A DNA stretch of 59,743 nucleotides, counting the filler, from Nitrospinae bacterium RIFCSPLOWO2_12_FULL_45_22 (GTDB taxonomy: Bacteria > 2-12-FULL-45-22), in assembly GCA_001803565.1 (NCBI GenBank). It is 3 parts of 3 records of this genome, joined end to end, with 100 filler letters (N's around TTAATTAATTAA, not from the genome) between each part and the next. Parts side by side here need not be neighbours in the genome. Positions count along the whole stretch, not along the records: positions 1 to 23,453 come from MHDQ01000134.1; 2 more parts are not named here. The stretch is one strand, 5' to 3'. This document shows, in pieces, positions 14,902-48,743 of this stretch; the stretch's first letter is position 1, and every line of letters starts with the position of its first letter. The notes below the pieces were generated by a model. That model saw only the letters and a list, made by a program, of their open reading frames with translations. It ran no database searches and had not been told where the DNA came from. The position numbers and the translations under genes were made by a program.

Positions 14902-16818
14902 TTAGCAATTTATGCCATAGCGCTTCATTTTTTTTTGTAAACCAACCCGGCTCAATCCCAGTTCCCTGGCAACTCTTGACTTATTCCCACGAAGGGCCTT
15001 GAGGGACTCTTCAATCATATGCCGCTCTACCTTTTCGATAGTCTTCTTTAAGTTCCCCTTCTCATTCATGGCCAAGGTCAGTAATTCATCTCTTTGCCGC
15101 ACATGATCTGATAGGAGGTCTATCTGGATAATTTCCTGGTCAGGGGCTATAGTTACTACTCTTTCAATCTCATGTTCCAGTTCGCGGATATTGCCTGGGA
15201 ATGGGTAGTTTAGTAGAGCCTCCATGGCTTCTTTGCTAAAACCCCTAATAGACTTATGCATCCGCTGACTAAATTTGGTTAAAAAATGCTTTGCCAGCAG
15301 GACTATATCATCTTTGCGTTCCCTTAAAGGGGGTAATACGATGGGAAAAACATTCAAGCGGTAATAAAGATCTTCCCTAAACCGGCCGGAGTCTACTTCT
15401 TTTTTTAGGTCTTTATTGGTGGCAGAAAGTATCCTGACATCAACTTTTTTGTAATTAGTATCACCTAAAGGTCTAATCTCCCCTTCTTCCAATACCCTCA
15501 GGAGCTTAGCCTGCATAGCCGGAGAGGTTTCACTAATTTCATCCAGGAATATAGTGCCCCCGTCAGCCATTTCAAAGAGGCCCTTTCTATCACTAACCGC
15601 CCCGGTAAAAGCCCCTTTCTTATTGCCAAAGAGTTCACTTTCTAACAGGGTCTCTGGAAGGGCGCTGCAGTTCTGGTCAATAAATCTACGGTCTTTACGC
15701 CGGCTGTTATAATGGATGGCGCGGGCAATCAATTCCTTACCGGTCCCGGTTTCTCCCTGGATAAGGACCGTGGTAGGGGTATCAATGACTTTTTCCAATA
15801 ATTCAAAAACCTTCCTCATCTTTGGGTTATTACCGATGATCTGGTCAAATTTATACCTCTTTTCCACTTCTTGCTTTAGGAAGATATTCTCGGCATTAAG
15901 CCGTTCTTTGGCCTCTTTCAATTCTTTATACAAACGGGCGTTCTCGATAGAGATAGCGAGGTTTCCTGCCAGGGTGTTCAATAGGTGGAGGTCTTCTTCG
16001 CTAAACATGCTATCTAATTTGTTCTTGGTGGCTATAGCACCAATGATTGCCCCTTTGCTTTGCAAGGGGGTACAGAGTATGGACCTGAGCCCAGATACGC
16101 CAATATTATCAATGTGTGGATCGTATCGGGGATCTTCTGTGGCAGTAGATACTACCAGGCCCTTTCCTTCCCTGATAACCCAGCCACAAATCCCTCTATT
16201 CATTGGGAAACGATGGCCATTGACGAGTTCGGGGGGGGTAGCAGCCTTTTCATTCACTAATGGTAGATATAATTCATTCTTATCCACCAGGATAATAGAA
16301 GTATTTTCTGCTTCTAATAACATACTGATTTTTGCCGTAGTAAATCTTAATAATTCCTCAATCTCTATCATAGCATTTAGGGAACTACTAATATCGTAAA
16401 GAAGAGACAGCTCCTGCATCCTTCGCTCCAATTCCCGGGCAAGGTGGTAAGTTTCTAAGGCCCGTTTGACCGTAATTTTTAGTTCCTTTGCATTCCAGGG
16501 TTTGAGGATATAACGGTAAACGTGGCCAGTGTTAATAGCTTCTAAGAGTTCATCGGCATCAGTATAGCTGGTAAGGATCATCCGTATGGCCTTAGGGAAA
16601 TATTTTAACGATATCCCGAGCAGTTCTACACCGGTTATTCCTGGCATTCTTTGATCAGCAAGGATCAGGGCAAATTCTTCCTTCTCCATAAGCTTAATAG
16701 CCTCTTGCCCGTTCTTGGCAGAAAATACCCGATATTCACCCCGGAAAGCCCTTTCTAATGCCTCCAGATTGTGAATTTCATCATCAACTACCAATATATT
16801 ATATTTAGGTAATTCCAT
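14902..16818 (-). CDS. Sigma54-dependent response regulator (REC-GAF-AAA+-HTH)
   Basis: ILVVDDE and ADQRMP receiver, GAF-like middle, GETGTGKE, GAFTGA, C-terminal HTH; start placed at ATG 16818. Confidence 0.92.
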   Translation of the reverse strand: MELPKYNILVVDDEIHNLEALERAFRGEYRVFSAKNGQEAIKLMEKEEFALILADQRMPGITGVELLGISLKYFPKAIRMILTSYTDADELLEAINTGHVYRYILKPWNAKELKITVKRALETYHLARELERRMQELSLLYDISSSLNAMIEIEELLRFTTAKISMLLEAENTSIILVDKNELYLPLVNEKAATPPELVNGHRFPMNRGICGWVIREGKGLVVSTATEDPRYDPHIDNIGVSGLRSILCTPLQSKGAIIGAIATKNKLDSMFSEEDLHLLNTLAGNLAISIENARLYKELKEAKERLNAENIFLKQEVEKRYKFDQIIGNNPKMRKVFELLEKVIDTPTTVLIQGETGTGKELIARAIHYNSRRKDRRFIDQNCSALPETLLESELFGNKKGAFTGAVSDRKGLFEMADGGTIFLDEISETSPAMQAKLLRVLEEGEIRPLGDTNYKKVDVRILSATNKDLKKEVDSGRFREDLYYRLNVFPIVLPPLRERKDDIVLLAKHFLTKFSQRMHKSIRGFSKEAMEALLNYPFPGNIRELEHEIERVVTIAPDQEIIQIDLLSDHVRQRDELLTLAMNEKGNLKKTIEKVERHMIEESLKALRGNKSRVARELGLSRVGLQKKMKRYGINC

Positions 16819-17019
16819 GGTATTGTTATTCCTAATTACGGTTTCAATTGATTGGTGGGGGAATAGCAACTAGCGCGCTAGACGGGGAAGATGCCTTACC
16901 TCAGCGGGAACAGCCGAAATGATTGTTGTACGGGAGAACTTTTTCTAAAGATATATCAACCTTATAAGATTGTCAATTAGAAATTAGTTTGTGTTACACT
17001 TGACATATAGGTTTAGGAG

Positions 17020-18609
17020 CTATTGGGTTATCTGATCCCGGCCATATATCTGACCCAACTCTCTAACTATCTCTCCTTGAGTAACATTAGCTTTGACGGC
17101 CTCTATGACGGCCGCAAAGATATTTTTGTTTTCAGCCAGGGCCGCTGCCCGTAGCTTCTTAAGGGTTTCCTGGGCTAGGGAGTGGTTTCGTTCTTTCTTC
17201 AACCGCTTTGTCCGCCTTACCTGCTCCTCTATAAGATCCCTTCTTAATCCAGGGGGAGGAGGGGTTAATCCTTCTTCTTCCATGGTATATTTATTGACTC
17301 CTACTATTATGCGCTCTTTATTATCTATCTCTTTTTGGTATTGGTATGCCGCCTGGCTGATCTCTTTTTGCGGATATCCTTGTCTAACAGCCTCAAGCAT
17401 ACCACCCATCTCCTCTATTCGATTAATATATTCCCCGGCCCGGTTTTCTATTTCATTTGTCAGGTACTCTATATAATACGACCCACCTAAAGGGTCAATC
17501 ACATCAGTTACACCAATTTCCTCTGACAGTATGTTCTGAGTCATCAAGGCAACCCGGGCTGCTTCCTGAGTAGGAGACCATAATGCCTCATCATAAGCAT
17601 CGGTATGTAGCGACTGGACACCGCCTAGAACCGCGGCCAGAGCCTGGATAGACACTCGGGCAATATTGTTTAGGGGTTGGCACCGGGTTAGGGTAGTTCC
17701 AGAGGTCTGGGCATGGAACTTCAGCCGTAAACATTTAGGTTCGGTGATACCGAATCTTTCCCTTAATATCCTGGCCCACATCCGCCGAGCAGCCCGGAAC
17801 TTAGCTATCTCCTCAAAGAATTCATTGCCCACATCAAAGAAAAAGGTAAAGCGGGGGATAAAATCCGCGCCGTTTAACCCGCACTCCAGGCTCTTCCGGA
17901 CATATAATATGGCGCTAGCCAGGGTAAAGGCCAGGGCTTGTACTGGAGTTGCGCCTGCCTGCTGCATGTGCTGACCCACTATACTCAGGCAATTCCATTG
18001 AGGCGCATGCTGGGCACAGAACTTTATATGATCTAGCAAGATGCGTAGGTGTCCGTCTAAGGAGAAGCGAAAGAACATATTGCAACTGGTATAATGGGAG
18101 ATGAAATCAGATTGATTAGAAGTACCCCGAATACACTTCCAGGGGATACCTTGCTTCTCCGCATAGGCCAGGTACATGGCTATTAAGGCAAAAGGGCCTG
18201 GGTCATTAAACCCAGATGTAACTTTATCCAGCGGTATATTTTGGAAGGCTATCTCTAAGTCTTGCAGGGAGTCTATGGTAGTACCGCAGCGGCCCAACAG
18301 TTCTATATCTACTTCATCAGAATCATACCCCCGCGCATAAGAATTACATGGAACAAAATTGATCCCTGTGGTCCCATTTTGAAACATTATCTTTTGTCGG
18401 GCGTTAAATATTTCTGGAGTCTCATGACCTACCAGCATTCTCTTTGTCCAGGGCTGACTCCGGTACATAGTAGGGTAAACCCCTCGGGTAAAGGGGTATT
18501 GGCCCGGGTTGCCGAGAGCCTCTCCCTGGTCAAACTCTTTGGTATCGTCTGAGGTATAAAAAGGCTTTAGTGGGAAACCCGATAGGGTCTGAAATTTTTC
18601 TTTTCTCAT
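17020..18609 (-). CDS. B12-dependent acyl-CoA mutase large (substrate-binding) subunit with non-canonical active site
   Basis: [47 protein letters not shown]; start at ATG 18609 with RBS GAGGAG; no cobalamin-binding domain. Confidence 0.9.
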   Translation of the reverse strand: MRKEKFQTLSGFPLKPFYTSDDTKEFDQGEALGNPGQYPFTRGVYPTMYRSQPWTKRMLVGHETPEIFNARQKIMFQNGTTGINFVPCNSYARGYDSDEVDIELLGRCGTTIDSLQDLEIAFQNIPLDKVTSGFNDPGPFALIAMYLAYAEKQGIPWKCIRGTSNQSDFISHYTSCNMFFRFSLDGHLRILLDHIKFCAQHAPQWNCLSIVGQHMQQAGATPVQALAFTLASAILYVRKSLECGLNGADFIPRFTFFFDVGNEFFEEIAKFRAARRMWARILRERFGITEPKCLRLKFHAQTSGTTLTRCQPLNNIARVSIQALAAVLGGVQSLHTDAYDEALWSPTQEAARVALMTQNILSEEIGVTDVIDPLGGSYYIEYLTNEIENRAGEYINRIEEMGGMLEAVRQGYPQKEISQAAYQYQKEIDNKERIIVGVNKYTMEEEGLTPPPPGLRRDLIEEQVRRTKRLKKERNHSLAQETLKKLRAAALAENKNIFAAVIEAVKANVTQGEIVRELGQIYGRDQITQ

Positions 18610-18631
18610 AGCTTTTGCTCCTCGTAAAAGT

Positions 18632-18789
18632 TTAGCCACAAAAAGGCACAAAAAGCACCCGAGAATTTTAGGAGTCAGGAGACAGTAGTCAGTAGATAAA
18701 AATCTGGCTCCTGACTCCTGCATTCTCTATTATCCAACAGGTTGTGTTGGTATGATCGTTCCGCTTATTTTTGCGCTTCTTTGCGGCTA
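18632..18789. repeat. Nested palindromic element (9-mer-type shell around a 7-mer-type hairpin)
   Basis: TTAGCCACAAAAAGGCACAAAAA...TTTTTGCGCTTCTTTGCGGCTA enclosing AGGAGTCAGGAGACAGTAGTCAG...CTGGCTCCTGACTCCTG. Confidence 0.75.
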
Positions 18790-18811
18790 TATTTTAGAAG
18801 ACCTTAGTTGG

Positions 18812-19021
18812 CTAAACAATTTCAGCAACAGTAACGTTTATAGCTTTTGGGCCTTTATCTCCTTTCTCGACTCCAAATGTCACTGCATCGCCTTCATGCA
18901 AAGAATCAAAATCTATTCCTACTACCGCTGAGCGATGAAAGAATATCTCCCTTCCATCGTCGGCACTAATGAATCCAAATCCTCGGTCTCTAATTAATTT
19001 CTTTACTGTACCTTTAAACAT
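18812..19021 (-). CDS. Cold-shock domain protein
   Basis: RGFGFI (RNP1), IFFHRS (RNP2), KGPKAINV. Confidence 0.95.
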   Translation of the reverse strand: MFKGTVKKLIRDRGFGFISADDGREIFFHRSAVVGIDFDSLHEGDAVTFGVEKGDKGPKAINVTVAEIV

Positions 19022-19429
19022 TAGCTCTCCTCCCTTCCAATATAAATTTTGTGTCTGGACACACCCATAAAATTGCTTCTATTACATCCTTTACATCTCA
19101 ACTGCGCCTTCCTGTGGGATACCTGCAGGAATAGAAATATGCCCTTCCTTTTTCAGACCCGCAATTACAGATAGCCCCTTCATATATTAAGGGGTTTGGA
19201 TATACATCCCTCTTGCTGCACTGCTTTAACCCTTTTCTTCCGCAATCATTATACCACCTATTTAAACTAAAAGGGAGTAGCCCCAGGGTATAATCGTAGG
19301 TGCAGCAGGTAAAACCCTTGAGGCGAGTATGGATAAGGGCAAGGAATTTTCTGGACTTTTGAGTTGACTTAGGGCAGATAAGATGATAGAAAAGACTTTG
19401 AATAGACATACCCACTTCACTTTTTGCGC

Positions 19430-19553: not shown

Positions 19554-22500
19554 ATGGAAAAAAGACTTAGAGACTTAATAGAGCTACCATCGGTCAGGAC
19601 TGTTATCCAACTGTCAGACACCTCTGACCCAAAGCTGAAGAAATTAATAGGGGAGAGCTTTGTCCTTACCCAGGAGGTCTATTTTCACTTCCTCACTATA
19701 CTTCAGAGTATCAAGGAAGGGCAAGGGGAGGGGTTTTTCGTCCTGGGGAACTATGGTTCAGGTAAATCCCATTTTCTTAGTATCCTGGATCTCCTCTTGA
19801 GAGAAGAGGGGGTATGGGGATTCCTGGTGGAGCAAAGGCCGGCCCTGCAAGAGTATAGCCAATGGATCCAGCCCGGGGCATATTTAGTAGCCAGTGATAG
19901 TTTAGTAGACTATCAGGCCTGGGAGAGGTTGGAAGATATAATATTGACAAAGATACAAGAGCGTCTCCAGAGGGATTATAACATCAAGGTGGCGTATGAC
20001 TGGACAGAACAATTAAATAAAGACCTCAAACTAATACTAAAAGAGAGGTATCCGAAAGCGCTGGCCTCTTTTTTAAAGAAGATAGGCTGGGAAGATGAAG
20101 AGCCACTATTTGAGCCCAGCAATTACCCGGTATTAGAAAACCTTATCCTGGAACTGAATCTGCCTTATAAGCTACGGCCCAGCCGCCACCAGGTCTTCCA
20201 GCACCTGCAGGCCCTTTTGGAAACCGGCCCGCTTCAGGGGATAGTAATATTGTTGGATGAGCTATCAGAGTTTTTGCGCTCCAAACCTACGGGCCGGGCC
20301 TTTAACGAAGATATTCGCTTCTTGCAATTCCTGGGTGAATGGGCCAACAAACATTCCCTATGGATAATTGCCACCTTACAGGAGCGGATAGAGGATACAG
20401 GTGATATCCCACAAGAGGCCTTCAATAAGATTAAAGACCGCTACCCTAAGACCATTTCCCTTACCGCCAGGCATATAGAAGAGCTGATCCACCAGCGCTT
20501 AATCCGAAAGAAACCCGGGGCAGAGGAGATTATTAATCAGACCTATCAGGATTTTAAGACCGCCTTCTCTACCTGGATGGTTCCTCAAGATAGGTTTTAT
20601 CGCCTCTATCCCGTACATCCCCAGACCCTGAAGTTCCTTGACCAACTAAAACCCCTCTTTTCGCAACATCGGGGTATAGTAGATTTTATTCATTATCAAC
20701 TCCAGGGGGACCCCGGACGACGCATACCGGGTATGCTGGAGCTGCCGTCAGATATACTCTTAACACCAGATAGTATCTTTGATCACTTCCTCCGCCGGAT
20801 CAAAGAGCGGGTAGAAACTAATCCTTACAGCGAGGTGGTCTACAAGTATTATGAGGAGTCGGGGGAAAGTATTTTCCCTGAGCCCGAAGAACGGGCCTTA
20901 GCCCTAAAAATTATCAAGACCCTGATCCTGCAGGCCATATCTCCCTGGAGATACCAGATCAGTTTGCGGGAGCTGGCCGAGACGCTTCTCACAAAAGTTT
21001 CTACCTGGGACTCAGAGGTAAACTACCAGTATATCCGGGATATTTGCGAGAAGCTGTACAAACAAGGCTCCTATATAGGGAAAAAGCCAGGGGCTGGCCC
21101 GCTGGAAGACATTTATTATATAGACCTGGAAGCCGACATAAACCTGATAATAAGGCGTAAGGTAGAATATATTGAAAAAGGTCTCGAGCCAGGGGACTCC
21201 CGGATATTCTATCGCCTGGCCCATTATTTAGATTCTCCACAACTGCCCCTGGCATGGCTCCACCGGGAAGGGAAGGGCAAACGGGAGATAAAATGGCAGA
21301 ATACCCCCCGCTGGGGTTATCTGATATTATCCGATCTCAGAGAAAATTCTTTAGACCTTATAGCCTCTCTGATAGAGGAATTTAATAATACTGAACTGGA
21401 CTTTGTCCTTTTCCTGGCCACTCCTTTTCAACTAAGGGCTCAGCAAGAATATCTCCTGGAAACTCTCCTCCCCTATCTCCGTTCTCATGGCCCGGAGGAT
21501 ACTTCCCAACATATCCCCTTGATCTTCTGGCTCCCCGGCCCGGTAGAAGATGAAAAAGCCTTACGACGGGCTTATGCCCACTCCATATTACTGGAAGAGA
21601 GCAAAAAAGACTCTACCCAGCTAGGACAACGCCTCCATAGCCATCTGGAAGCTATTATGGCCGATGATAAGCGGGTAGTTAAAGAGGTTTTTACTGTGGC
21701 TTATTATGACGGTACTTTAATCTCTAACCTAATGGAGCAGGAGCGTTCTTTAGGGGAGATTGGGCAGTTGTCCTTTGATCGCAGCCTGCAAGAGATCATC
21801 CCGCCGGTCCTGGCCCAACGCTTCCCCAGGCATCAGCAGCTTGCCCCTTATACCGATATTTACTTGAGAGGCACAGCCCAGGAATTAATTAGCTCTTTCT
21901 TAAAACCCGGTCAGATTGTCTTCCCTAAAGGTACGAGCACCAGCCTTAAATTACTTATTGAAAGCTATCTAAGACCCCTTAAAATTATCAAAAATATCCC
22001 TAATGGCTTCCATCTGGCAGTGGATCCCAGAAAGAGCTCCATAGTAGCCTATTATTTACAGAGCTTAGAGGAGGGACGAGTAGACTTGAAAACCCTTTAT
22101 TGGCGGCTACGAAAAAGCCCATATGGAATAAGCTTTGATCAATTTCAACTCCTGACCCTAGCCCTCATCTTCAGTGGCCAGATCATACCTTATAGCCAGG
22201 GTAAGCGCAAACCCCTGGAAGAGATCACCACCCTGGACCTGGCTAATATCTCCGAGATCGGCCCGGGAGAGCTTTTATCTGCCACCCAGCAAAAGTCTCT
22301 TCAGCTTATCCCCCTTATACCACCGCAGTTAAAGAAAGAACCCCTTACTATCCAGCAACAACAGGCCATCTGGGAATATTTGAGACAGTTTAAAGAAGAG
22401 AGACTCAATGAGCTGAACCGCCTGAGGACGATTTTCGAGCACGCCCAGCAATATCCGGCAGGAAGTGGTCTGGATTGGGCAATGATAAATGAAGAGATAG

Positions 22501-23453
22501 GAAAAATGTCCCAATTTCTGGAAGCAATAGAGCCTTCTTATTCGTCGAAAGAAGGGCTGGAAAGGTTTTTGGAGAGCTACCAGCAATATCCCCTGATCGG
22601 GAGCGTTTTGCAGCAATACCAGACTATCAAAAACTTCTTTTTTAATTACCTGGATAAATATTTCCTCATTTCCCGCTACTTGCAGGAAAGGGGCTGGAGT
22701 CTACCTTCGGAGGAGAGATATCAGGCCCTTGCCGCGCAGCGGGAGGGTTTGATAGAGCGGTTAAGAGAGTCCGATAAGGTCTTCGATGAAGAATATCTGG
22801 AGGCGCTTTTTCAGGCCTTCGAACCCTTTAAAGAAAACTATATTACCTTATATCAGGAGGGGCACCGTAAGTACTGCTCTCCAGAACGATTCACTGCCTA
22901 CCATCAACTCCGTAAATCTCCTGATTATCGGCTGCTGAGTCTGTTGGCCCAAATAGAGCCTATCTCGGTAAAAGACGATCTGGTAAAGGTAGAGCGGCAG
23001 TTGGCCAGGATTGATCAATACCAGTGCCCGGGGCCCGACCCCCAGGTCTTGCAGCACCAACCCTTCTGTCTATGCGGTTACCAGTTAGGCCAGTCTCTAG
23101 ATTTAGCCCCGGTAGCGGAACTAGAAGCTATTATCCAAAAAGGGATAAGGGAATATGTCCAGACCCTCCAGGAACCTATGTATTGCCAGAAGATAATGGA
23201 TCATATAGCTGATTTGGAAGTAATAGGCGACAACCAGGTAGCTGATGTTTTAAAGAAGGTGCTGGAGATCAAGCTGGACGATCCGGGCCAGGAGACAGGA
23301 TTAGCTAACCTAATATCGCCCCGGGCAATCCAGAGTATTAATGAGGCTCTAAAGGGCCACCCACAGCCAGTAGTGGCCCGTGACCTCGATGAGCTTTATG
23401 AAAACCTGGTAGAGAGAACCTTTTCCAGAAAGAACCTTTTAAAAATCTTTAAT
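19554..23453 (+). CDS. Large P-loop ATPase, BrxC/PglY-like (DUF6079-like), 3' end lost at contig break
   Basis: Walker A GNYGSGKS, Walker B IVILLDE, YPVHP motif, long helical region, C-terminal C...CLC cluster; about 1300 aa without a stop before the gap. Confidence 0.7.
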
Positions 23454-23553
23454 NNNNNNNNNNNNNNNNNNNNNNNNNNNNNNNNNNNNNNNNNNNNTTA
23501 ATTAATTAANNNNNNNNNNNNNNNNNNNNNNNNNNNNNNNNNNNNNNNNNNNN
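23454..23553. other. Artificial contig-joining linker
   Basis: 44 N + TTAATTAATTAA (stops in all six frames) + 44 N. Confidence 0.98.
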
Positions 23554-41509: not shown

Positions 41510-43123
41510 TTGGCTACAGAAAATAAGGACAAAAAGGAGTTTACTACGGCTTCTTCTTTGCCGCTAAAAAGCTACTATTTACCTAACGATTTAGCAGGCT
41601 GGGACTATTTACAGGACCTGGGTTTTCCAGGCCAATACCCCTTTACTCGAGGGGTACAGCCTAATATGTATCGGGGCCGGTTATGGACTATGCGGCAATA
41701 TGCTGGCTATGGCACGGCCGAGGAGTCTAACCAGAGATATAAGTATTTACTCCAGCAAGGCCAGACCGGCCTCAGTGTAGCCTTTGACTTGCCTACCCAG
41801 ATGGGCTATGACTCTGACCATCCCCTGGCCGCCGGCGAAGTAGGTAAAGTAGGCGTAGCGATTGACTCCCTGGAAGATATGGAGAACCTATTCCGTGATC
41901 TACCCCTGGATAAGATCAGTACCTCTATGACTATTAATGCGACGGCCATTGTCTTACTGGCCATGTACCTGGTAGTGGCCGAACACCAAAAAGTGCCGTG
42001 GGAGCAACTGAATGGTACGATCCAGAACGATATCCTCAAGGAATATATTGCCCGGGGGACTTATATCTTTCCCCCTCAACCCTCTATGCGGATTATTACT
42101 GATATCTTTAGTTTTTGCAGTCAAAGAGTCCCTCAATGGAATACTATCAGCATCAGTGGGTACCATATAAGGGAAGCCGGGGCTAATGCCGTCCAGGAGC
42201 TGGCTTTTACCCTGGCCAATGGTCTAACTTATGTCCAGGCTGCCCTGGATGCTGGCTTAAAAATAGATGATTTTGCCCCCCGGCTCTCCTTTTTCTTTAA
42301 TGTCCATAACGATTTTTTAGAAGAGATAGCCAAATTCCGCGCTGCACGGCGGATTTGGGCACGGTTCATGCGGGATAAGTTTGGGGCCCAAAACGAGGCC
42401 TCATGGAAACTCCGCTTCCATACCCAGACCGCAGGCTCTACCCTTACGGCCCAGCAGCCCAATAACAATATTGTCCGGGTAGCTCTGCAGGCCCTGGCGG
42501 CTATCTTGGGCAGTACGCAGTCCCTCCATACTAATTCCCGGGATGAAGCCCTGGCACTGCCCAGTGAAGACTCGGTGCGGATAGCCTTACGTACCCAGCA
42601 ACTCATTGCCCATGAATCGGGTGTAGCTAACACCGTTGATCCCCTGGCTGGGGCTTACGCTATCGAGGCCCTAACCAATCAGATGGAAGAGAAGTGCCAC
42701 GAATACCTGAGCCAGATAGACCAGCGGGGTGGTGTCTTGAAGGCTATTGAAGCAGGTTATATCCAGCAAGAGATTCAGGAGAGTGCTTATAAGTACCAAC
42801 AAGCCCTGGAAAAAGAAGAGGCTATCCAGGTGGGAGTTAATAGATTCCGGCTGGAAAGGGAAGAAATCGGGATAAAAGGAGAGCTGCTAAAGATTGACCC
42901 GGCTGTAGAGAAGAACCAGCGAGAGAAGCTAAGCCGCTTAAAAAAGGCCAGGGATCAAAAAGGGGTAGAGGCCGCCTTGAATAATTTGAGACAAATAGCC
43001 CAAAGGAAGGATAACCTGATGCCCGCCATTATAGACACCGTCAGGGTGAAGGTTACTCTGGGAGAGATCTCTGACGAATTAAGAAAAGTATTTGGCGAAT
43101 ATAAAGAAGTACCTGTTTTTTAA
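41510..43123 (+). CDS. Methylmalonyl-CoA mutase large subunit (canonical, split type)
   Basis: [25 protein letters not shown] and [11 protein letters not shown] retain the Tyr89/Gln197/Arg207/Tyr243-His244 equivalents. Confidence 0.93.
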
Positions 43124-48643: not shown

Positions 48644-48743
48644 NNNNNNNNNNNNNNNNNNNNNNNNNNNNNNNNNNNNNNNNNNNNTTAATTAATTAAN
48701 NNNNNNNNNNNNNNNNNNNNNNNNNNNNNNNNNNNNNNNNNNN
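48644..48743. other. Artificial contig-joining linker
   Basis: 44 N + TTAATTAATTAA + 44 N. Confidence 0.98.

Follow-up and report, generated by a model that had tools for sequence, protein, structure and literature searches.

To our knowledge, only a handful of acyl-coenzyme A (acyl-CoA) mutase specificities are known, each of which opens a chemically hard rearrangement. In methylmalonyl-CoA mutase (MCM), Tyr89 and Arg207 hold the substrate carboxylate and Tyr243-His244 line the radical site, the Arg207 place being the classical substrate-contact position. HcmA, the large subunit of 2-hydroxyisobutyryl-CoA mutase (HCM), is marked by Ile at the Tyr89 place and an extra Asp in its STDFDM motif, and isobutyryl-CoA mutase (ICM) by Phe and Gln at the Tyr89 and Arg207 places. 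The described system closest to the one reported here is pivalyl-CoA mutase (PCM; PcmA/PcmB) of Xanthobacter autotrophicus Py2, the biochemistry of which was reportedly published by Kitanishi, Cracan and Banerjee in J Biol Chem in 2015. From the source names, we take Xaut_5043 to be PcmA. Public sources name this protein (UniProt A7IQE5) 'Pivalyl-CoA mutase large subunit' and call Xaut_5044 the small subunit of PCM.

We analysed a mutase gene at 17020–18609 (minus strand; 529 amino acids plus stop) in a 59,743-nucleotide stretch of DNA, the window, from Nitrospinae bacterium RIFCSPLOWO2_12_FULL_45_22 (GCA_001803565.1). The window joins three contigs of one metagenome-assembled genome (MAG; 3.67 Mb in 321 contigs, 85% complete, 1.3% contamination): C134 (1–23453), which carries the mutase gene, C136 (23554–48643) and C137 (48744–59743). 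Runs of N fill the joins at 23454–23553 and 48644–48743, and gene order and distances across them are artificial. Judged by its sequence, the gene is an intact large (substrate-binding) subunit of an adenosylcobalamin (AdoCbl)-dependent acyl-CoA mutase of the PCM family, and most of what a first-pass annotation had read as a rewritten active site is, by the same comparison, the family mark of PCM, an enzyme already characterised. What appears to be new is a conserved Cys-Asn variant at the Arg207 place, found mainly in anaerobe-type lineages, together with a matching B12 subunit gene elsewhere in the genome and recurrent neighbours of the HGD-D type (2-hydroxyacyl-CoA-dehydratase / benzoyl-CoA-reductase-like). 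Among the papers searched, we found none on the PCM family or its link to HGD-D, and the absence of the Cys-Asn branch from print can be claimed only to that extent.

Placement within the pivalyl-CoA mutase family

The mutase matched PF01642 with 582.7 bits (cut-off 22.1), covering model positions 1–512 of 512, and TIGR00641 with 557.3 bits (cut-off 303.8), which bears out the first-pass annotation's call of a B12 acyl-CoA mutase large subunit. Its score against the MCM equivalog model NF006944 was far under the cut-off (469.5 bits against 876), as was its score against the IcmF model NF045497 (219.8 bits against 1500), and the Tyr89/Arg207 clamp places are occupied by Leu59 and Cys176. An ordinary MCM, an outcome that the annotation had itself entertained, does not fit these scores or the replaced clamp. 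The nearest solved structure was that of HcmA (4r3u; E 1e-127), but the mutase lies outside the HcmA branch and has Leu and Val where HcmA has Ile and the Asp of STDFDM. In a search among 5.8 billion proteins, the rewritten motifs recurred in almost all of the 120 best matches listed.

When plasmids were searched with tblastn, Xaut_5043 was recovered from pXAUT01 of X. autotrophicus Py2, at 49% identity. Xaut_5043 reads RQLIG and VGQHMQQ and, like the window protein, combines Leu, Pro-Cys, an inserted Asn, Gln-His and Gln-Gln. The first-pass annotation, although it listed Leu at the Tyr89 place for PCM, had not recognised the combination of residues from a characterised class, a view that PcmA overturns for all of these elements.

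A FastTree phylogeny was built from 142 large subunits: the window protein and 8 paralogs from its own genome, 46 near hits after thinning, 13 context loci, 4 named references and, from a 50%-identity library, 70 representatives. Xaut_5043 shared a 60-row clade with the window protein (support 98, or 100 with one further row added), and IQ-TREE analysis of 68 rows recovered a PCM-family clade of 61 rows with support of 100. Within the family, the Arg207 place divides the branches: it is Cys in 14 of the 16 rows of the FastTree subclade that contains the window protein and, in the PcmA clade, Asn in 26 rows out of 28. In the IQ-TREE phylogeny, the subclade of the window protein had 17 rows (support 95), and the window protein lay outside the 28-row Asn-His clade that includes Xaut_5043 (support 83). 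Thus the possibility, raised by the first-pass annotation, that the protein sits in a characterised clade with the same residues was borne out for the clade itself (PcmA, support 98–100) and for most of the residues, but not for Cys-Asn, which stands in place of Asn-His.

Active-site signature and its conservation

The first-pass annotation had compared the mutase with a paralog at 41510–43123 (plus strand). BLASTP aligned the two at 44% identity (232/525; E 8e-160) and showed all four quoted replacements, which include RQYAG changed to a Leu-bearing motif, GTSNQSDFISHYTSCN with its one-residue insertion, and SGYHIRE changed to VGQHMQQ. The description of this comparator as a canonical paralog in the same window holds as regards its MCM (Tyr/Arg) signature. 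However, it belongs to the same genome on a different contig, C136, so that its distance from the mutase is meaningless.

Residues were mapped on chain 5req_A of Propionibacterium shermanii MCM, in which the Tyr89 place is printed as Phe. MCM Tyr89 corresponds to Leu59 (codon 18433–18435; this and the codons that follow are on the minus strand), and Leu was present in 59 of the 60 rows of the family clade against 12 of the 82 outside it. Phe-Asp-Leu of the canonical AFDL is replaced by Pro87-Cys88-Asn89 (18343–18351), with Cys at the canonical Asp place in 53/60 rows inside and 0/82 outside. MCM Gln197 is retained as Gln166, with Asn165 inserted just before it (18112–18117 for both codons); a residue is inserted here in every one of the 60 clade rows and in a single row outside (1/82). 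MCM Arg207 corresponds to Cys176, followed by Asn177 (18079–18084), the pair that distinguishes the subclade from PcmA (Asn-His). The codons at 17959–17973 give Gln213-His214-Met215-Gln216-Gln217 for Tyr-His-Ile-Arg-Glu, so that Tyr243-His244 becomes Gln213-His214 and Arg246-Glu247 becomes Gln216-Gln217; Gln-His was found in 59/60 rows of the clade and 2/82 outside. The loss of the Tyr/Arg pair that binds the carboxylate, as first annotated, was therefore confirmed, with Leu59 and Cys176 in those places.

Among 21 homologs of 57–86% identity, 164 of the 529 columns were invariant, and these included all 12 signature positions (L59, P87, C88, N89, N165, Q166, C176, N177, Q213, H214, Q216 and Q217; hypergeometric p = 6e-7). 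Because all 12 residues are invariant across these homologs, the altered site is, as far as an alignment can tell, not a product of decay, a check that the first-pass annotation had proposed. Almost identical copies of the same DNA were present in metagenomes of soil, groundwater and sediment (16 studies), and two of the three differences seen across three metagenome runs were synonymous.

Departures from the canonical site were also seen elsewhere. The roughly 11 large-subunit paralogs of the genome are on C220, C136, C207, C134, C318, C85, C286 (two), C265, C309 and C300. The active sites of those on C318, C85, C286 (both), C265 and C207 are far more altered, and the C265 and C85 proteins are without the His244 equivalent. 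A relative of the PCM family from Methylomirabilia (L045:3-2399) has a B12-binding domain fused at the N-terminus of the large subunit and Leu-His at the Arg207 place.

A candidate small subunit at a separate locus

As the first-pass annotation had stated, no small subunit adjoins the mutase gene: C134 carries not one of the genome's 44 PF02310 matches. The genome has 13 PF01642 matches, representing about 11 large-subunit genes, with seven short B12-binding open reading frames (133–148 amino acids) and one MeaB gene. Six of the seven small subunits adjoin a large one; that on contig C7 (L118:5918-6355) is an orphan, and carries the cobalamin motif DxHxxG as DGHDRG. The GC content and tetranucleotide composition of both C134 and C7 are typical of the source genome.

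The orphan is of the type that partners PCM-family large subunits. In an IQ-TREE phylogeny of 20 rows it fell in a 10-row clade with all nine PCM-family partner subunits (support 95/99). In a 57-row tree it fell in a 29-row clade (support 97) made up of PCM-family partners only, from which 17 MCM-like or ICM-like partners, HcmB and the genome's six remaining small subunits were absent. We also modelled the complex of the mutase with the C7 subunit, which scored 0.76 against 0.00 for the best of three controls. Of 157 solved complexes, 116 came up to that mark, as did 2 of 215 mismatched pairs. Runs agreed in at least 90% of contacts, and the partner had a pLDDT of at least 81. In the predicted interface, large-subunit residues 89–90, 176–178 and 217–219 face the DxHxxG loop, which would locate the altered residues at the cofactor-facing mouth of the barrel. 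The model is a likeness that stops short of proving binding, and its pass may reflect memory, since the similar complex HcmAB is already solved. From the phylogeny and the model together, the C7 small subunit is most probably the partner of the window's large subunit.

Separate encoding of the two subunits has parallels. In G001, the only genome of the same order in our comparison set (68% identity), the large and small subunits are likewise on separate contigs. There is also a published precedent: of the two mutase subunits, the actinonin cluster includes just the large one, ActD, and the small subunit is elsewhere in the genome (PMC5719088).

Neighbourhoods of the Cys-Asn and Asn-His genes

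We examined 14 Cys-Asn loci besides the window's own, counting L029 and L037 once as they are a single contig. Features were counted within 6 kb, using 13 Asn-His loci and the nine Cys-Asn loci in which the sequence continues for 900 bp or more past the gene. Both groups usually had an adjacent B12 subunit (8/9 Cys-Asn loci, L036 being without one, and 12/13 Asn-His loci). The groups differed in their other neighbours: an HGD-D gene was near four of the nine Cys-Asn genes (L036, L040, L041 and L049) and near none of the 13 Asn-His genes, whereas MeaB was near nine of the 13 Asn-His genes and only one Cys-Asn gene (L108, where it lies beside another mutase, so that none has its own). The Cys-Asn relatives came mainly from anaerobe-type lineages.

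HGD-D genes also mark the locus of the presumed partner, as the orphan small subunit on C7 adjoins two of them. Their products scored under the cut-offs of the models for 2-hydroxyisocaproyl-CoA dehydratase, benzoyl-CoA reductase and double-cubane proteins. The beta-like C7 protein grouped with the mutase-linked HGD-D proteins of Dehalococcoidia in a 10-row clade that included seven other paralogs from its own genome, a suggestive link in the tree by which one-to-one orthology is not established. Mutase genes, HGD-D pairs and glycyl radical enzymes share contigs repeatedly in this genome (for example C318:2-12350, C265:1891-10403, C153:518-6673 and C15:2747-9114). C318 combines a mutase pair with an HGD-D pair and a glycyl radical enzyme; on C265 a mutase accompanies an HGD-D pair; and C153 has the genome's single MeaB gene beside an HGD-D gene and an activator.

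A sister branch of Cys-Asn genes (57–60% identity) has a different setting. At L042 and L037 a glycyl radical enzyme has two kinds of mutase next to it, the Cys-Asn one and a second, different pair. In L042 the glycyl radical enzyme matches the (1-methylalkyl)succinate synthase MasD (PDB 9o8u; 1297 bits), and in L037 it is a fragment in the same position. These mutases are candidates for carbon-skeleton rearrangement in anaerobic alkane degradation. The two loci (L042:181-8061 and L037:2250-10359) are from Deltaproteobacteria/Desulfobacteria MAGs, and their second mutase pair is divergent and related to the C265 mutase of the window's genome.

The sister branch could be taken to mean that the window enzyme, too, is a carbon-skeleton mutase of anaerobic hydrocarbon degradation, with a bulky carboxylated substrate of the alkylsuccinyl-CoA type. 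We consider this very improbable. The mutase has no Arg or Tyr to hold a carboxylate, and the second mutase pair at the MasD loci could perform that step. Moreover, no MasD-type enzyme was found in the assembled 85% of the genome, whose four glycyl radical enzymes are 34–38% identical to the L042 protein; the one of these four that was checked is closest to glycerol dehydratase.

Proposed function and substrate specificity

By analogy with PcmAB and HcmAB, the large subunit would be a substrate-binding TIM barrel that pairs with a separate small B12-binding subunit. By radical chemistry, the CoA-thioester group of a non-carboxylated, branched acyl-CoA would then shift from one carbon to its neighbour, in a pocket predicted to be lined by Leu59, Cys88, Gln166, Cys176, Asn177, Gln213 and His214. 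A non-carboxylated, branched substrate, as with PcmAB, is suggested by these pocket residues and by the lack of a Tyr/Arg carboxylate clamp. We infer the catalytic activity of the enzyme by this analogy, as we infer its pairing with the C7 subunit and any difference in substrate.

The reading that we favour, and hold to be probable, is that the gene encodes a functional substrate-binding subunit of the PCM family that works with the C7 subunit on a substrate different from, or broader than, isovaleryl-CoA or pivalyl-CoA. Alternatively, the enzyme may be a plain PCM ortholog that interconverts isovaleryl-CoA and pivalyl-CoA, the change from Asn-His to Cys-Asn being without effect on specificity. 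This we think unlikely, though by no means far-fetched. The mutase shares the family clade and every other signature element with Xaut_5043, and automatic annotation calls the family members P0066 and P0106 'pivalyl-CoA mutase large subunit'. Nevertheless, identity with Xaut_5043 is only 49%, the residue at the substrate-contact Arg207 place is close to fixed as Cys in one branch and as Asn in the other, and the operons differ (no MeaB, with HGD-D or MasD neighbours instead). Because of that fixed difference and of the differing neighbourhoods, a shifted or broader substrate seems somewhat more likely than plain PCM activity from the sequences compared.

Several observations weigh against the favoured reading. 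An approximately unbiased (AU) test did not reject a tree joining the four-row clade of the window protein to the 28 Asn-His rows (p-AU 0.153), so that the enzyme may be closely sister to PcmA and catalyse the same reaction, as the plain-ortholog explanation would have it. The large and small subunits are on separate contigs of a binned genome that is 85% complete, so their pairing rests on phylogeny and the model. Other large subunits of the genome are also without an adjacent small one (C136, C265 and perhaps C220), and the C7 subunit might serve these instead or as well. With 67 HGD-D matches (and 10 activator matches) in the genome, some HGD-D genes will adjoin others by chance, and the link could be partly of that kind; at the small-subunit locus of G001, no HGD-D gene was found in the first 14 kb of the 39-kb contig, the part searched. 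Finally, we found no RNA evidence for the mutase: the one possible RNA run (X20) spans only 18758–18910, outside the gene.

Beyond the substrate of this one enzyme, the Cys-Asn branch as a whole might be a separate specificity class of anaerobes. It would carry out an undescribed carbon-skeleton rearrangement, coupled to a (de)hydratase-like radical enzyme of the HGD-D type or, in the sister branch, to alkane degradation, and in the window's lineage would draw its subunits from separate loci. We put this forward tentatively, and on present evidence lean somewhat against it. The coupling to HGD-D, in the window's clade and in Dehalococcoidia, could for example form part of a route for hydroxylated or unsaturated branched acyl-CoAs.

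The hallmarks of the PCM family are now separated from the one position at which its branches differ, which leaves a compact target: two residues, a single large subunit with its small one, and a few acyl-CoAs. If the Cys-Asn enzymes do have their own substrate, this would be a new B12 rearrangement in subsurface anaerobes, and might explain the recurrent adjacency of mutase and HGD-D genes and, in the sister branch, that of the mutase and the alkane-activating MasD. If the enzyme is a plain PCM, the result is ordinary, yet it extends PCM to anaerobic lineages and shows a split-locus arrangement.

Gene boundaries and local context

The open reading frame of the mutase can be extended upstream as far as an ATG at 18723. 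The four closest homologs (79–86% identity) in the protein search are each 529 amino acids long with 100% coverage, and a GAGGAG ribosome-binding site (Shine-Dalgarno), read directly from the sequence, lies at 18618–18623 (minus strand), 8 nt ahead of the ATG at 18609. The true start is therefore most likely at 18609.

Upstream, at 18812–19021 (minus strand), is a gene for a 69-amino-acid protein with a strong ribosome-binding site, identified by translation, which from the look of its sequence we take to be cold-shock-domain-like; it falls outside the claims made for the enzyme. The possible RNA contig from run X20 covers the 3' end of this gene. Between it and the mutase start is a terminator-like hairpin (18644–18660, minus strand), although the signal is weak, the consensus scan having found 5 such sites against 2.9 expected. 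Promoter scans gave nothing above chance: there was no sigma-54 match in 18610–19100 (20 in the whole window against 20.2 expected), and the sigma-70 scan found 2 sites against 5.2 expected. No riboswitch or other RNA family scored above threshold.

Downstream, at 14902–16869 (minus strand), Pfam identified a regulator with receiver, GAF, sigma-54 activator and HTH domains. In one sediment metagenome contig, 12 bp are inserted at 16976, between the stop codon of the mutase and this regulator, where a sigma-70-like -35 box lies.

This setting bears on a further explanation. As a paralog, the mutase might have decayed or lost catalysis, as in MutA, the inactive beta subunit of Propionibacterium MCM, or it might sense a ligand together with the sigma-54 regulator. 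The 23 kb of C134 contain no B12 subunit, MeaB or metabolic gene, the sigma-54 activator is directly downstream, and much more degenerate mutase paralogs do exist in the genome, such as those on C265 and C85. Even so, we give this explanation hardly any weight. The whole signature is invariant in the 21 homologs and common to an active, characterised enzyme, most relatives have an adjacent B12 subunit, and a matching small subunit is present in the genome. A role as sensor also sits poorly with the lack of an upstream sigma-54 promoter in the scanned interval and with the neighbourhoods of relatives, among which the pairing with the regulator is not conserved; the regulator is absent beside the 68%-identical ortholog in L036, the closest relative compared.

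At 19554–23501 (plus strand) is a P-loop protein of 1315 amino acids with DUF6079 and a weak match to BrxC (BREX), which comes to within some 50 bp of the end of the contig (23453). The best named matches of a ComM/YifB protein were 62–64% identical and spread over many phyla, and the organism's lineage is very sparsely sampled.

Relation to characterised mutases

The mutase shares its fold and family with MCM (P. shermanii 1req/5req, human 2xij, Escherichia coli ScpA and the paralog at 41510–43123 of its own genome), but replaces Tyr89, Arg207, Tyr243 and the Arg-Glu pair. With HcmA/HcmB (4r3u; the Methylibium petroleiphilum plasmid copy is L023) it shares the architecture of separate large and small subunits. 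HcmA differs in several ways: Ile stands at the Tyr89 place, STDFDM has its extra Asp, no residue is inserted, Tyr-His is kept, and the protein lies outside the PCM clade. ActD is similar in being a large mutase subunit encoded apart from its small subunit; however, it is assigned to the HCM subclass and acts on the carboxylated hexylmalonyl-CoA (PMC5719088), and is not of the PCM family.

The closest likeness is to PcmA/PcmB (Xaut_5043/5044), a two-subunit AdoCbl acyl-CoA mutase in the same clade. In common with the window protein, PcmA carries Leu in place of Tyr89, the Pro-Cys motif, an inserted Asn, and both Gln-His and Gln-Gln, and PcmB and the C7 subunit are of one type. The two large subunits are nevertheless only 49% identical, with Asn-His at the Arg207 place of PcmA and Cys-Asn in the window protein. 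PcmA is encoded in an operon of small subunit, large subunit and MeaB-type GTPase (Xaut_5044-5043-5042), whereas the window's contig carries neither partner, and the relatives of the window protein are mainly from anaerobe-type lineages, with HGD-D or MasD as their neighbours.

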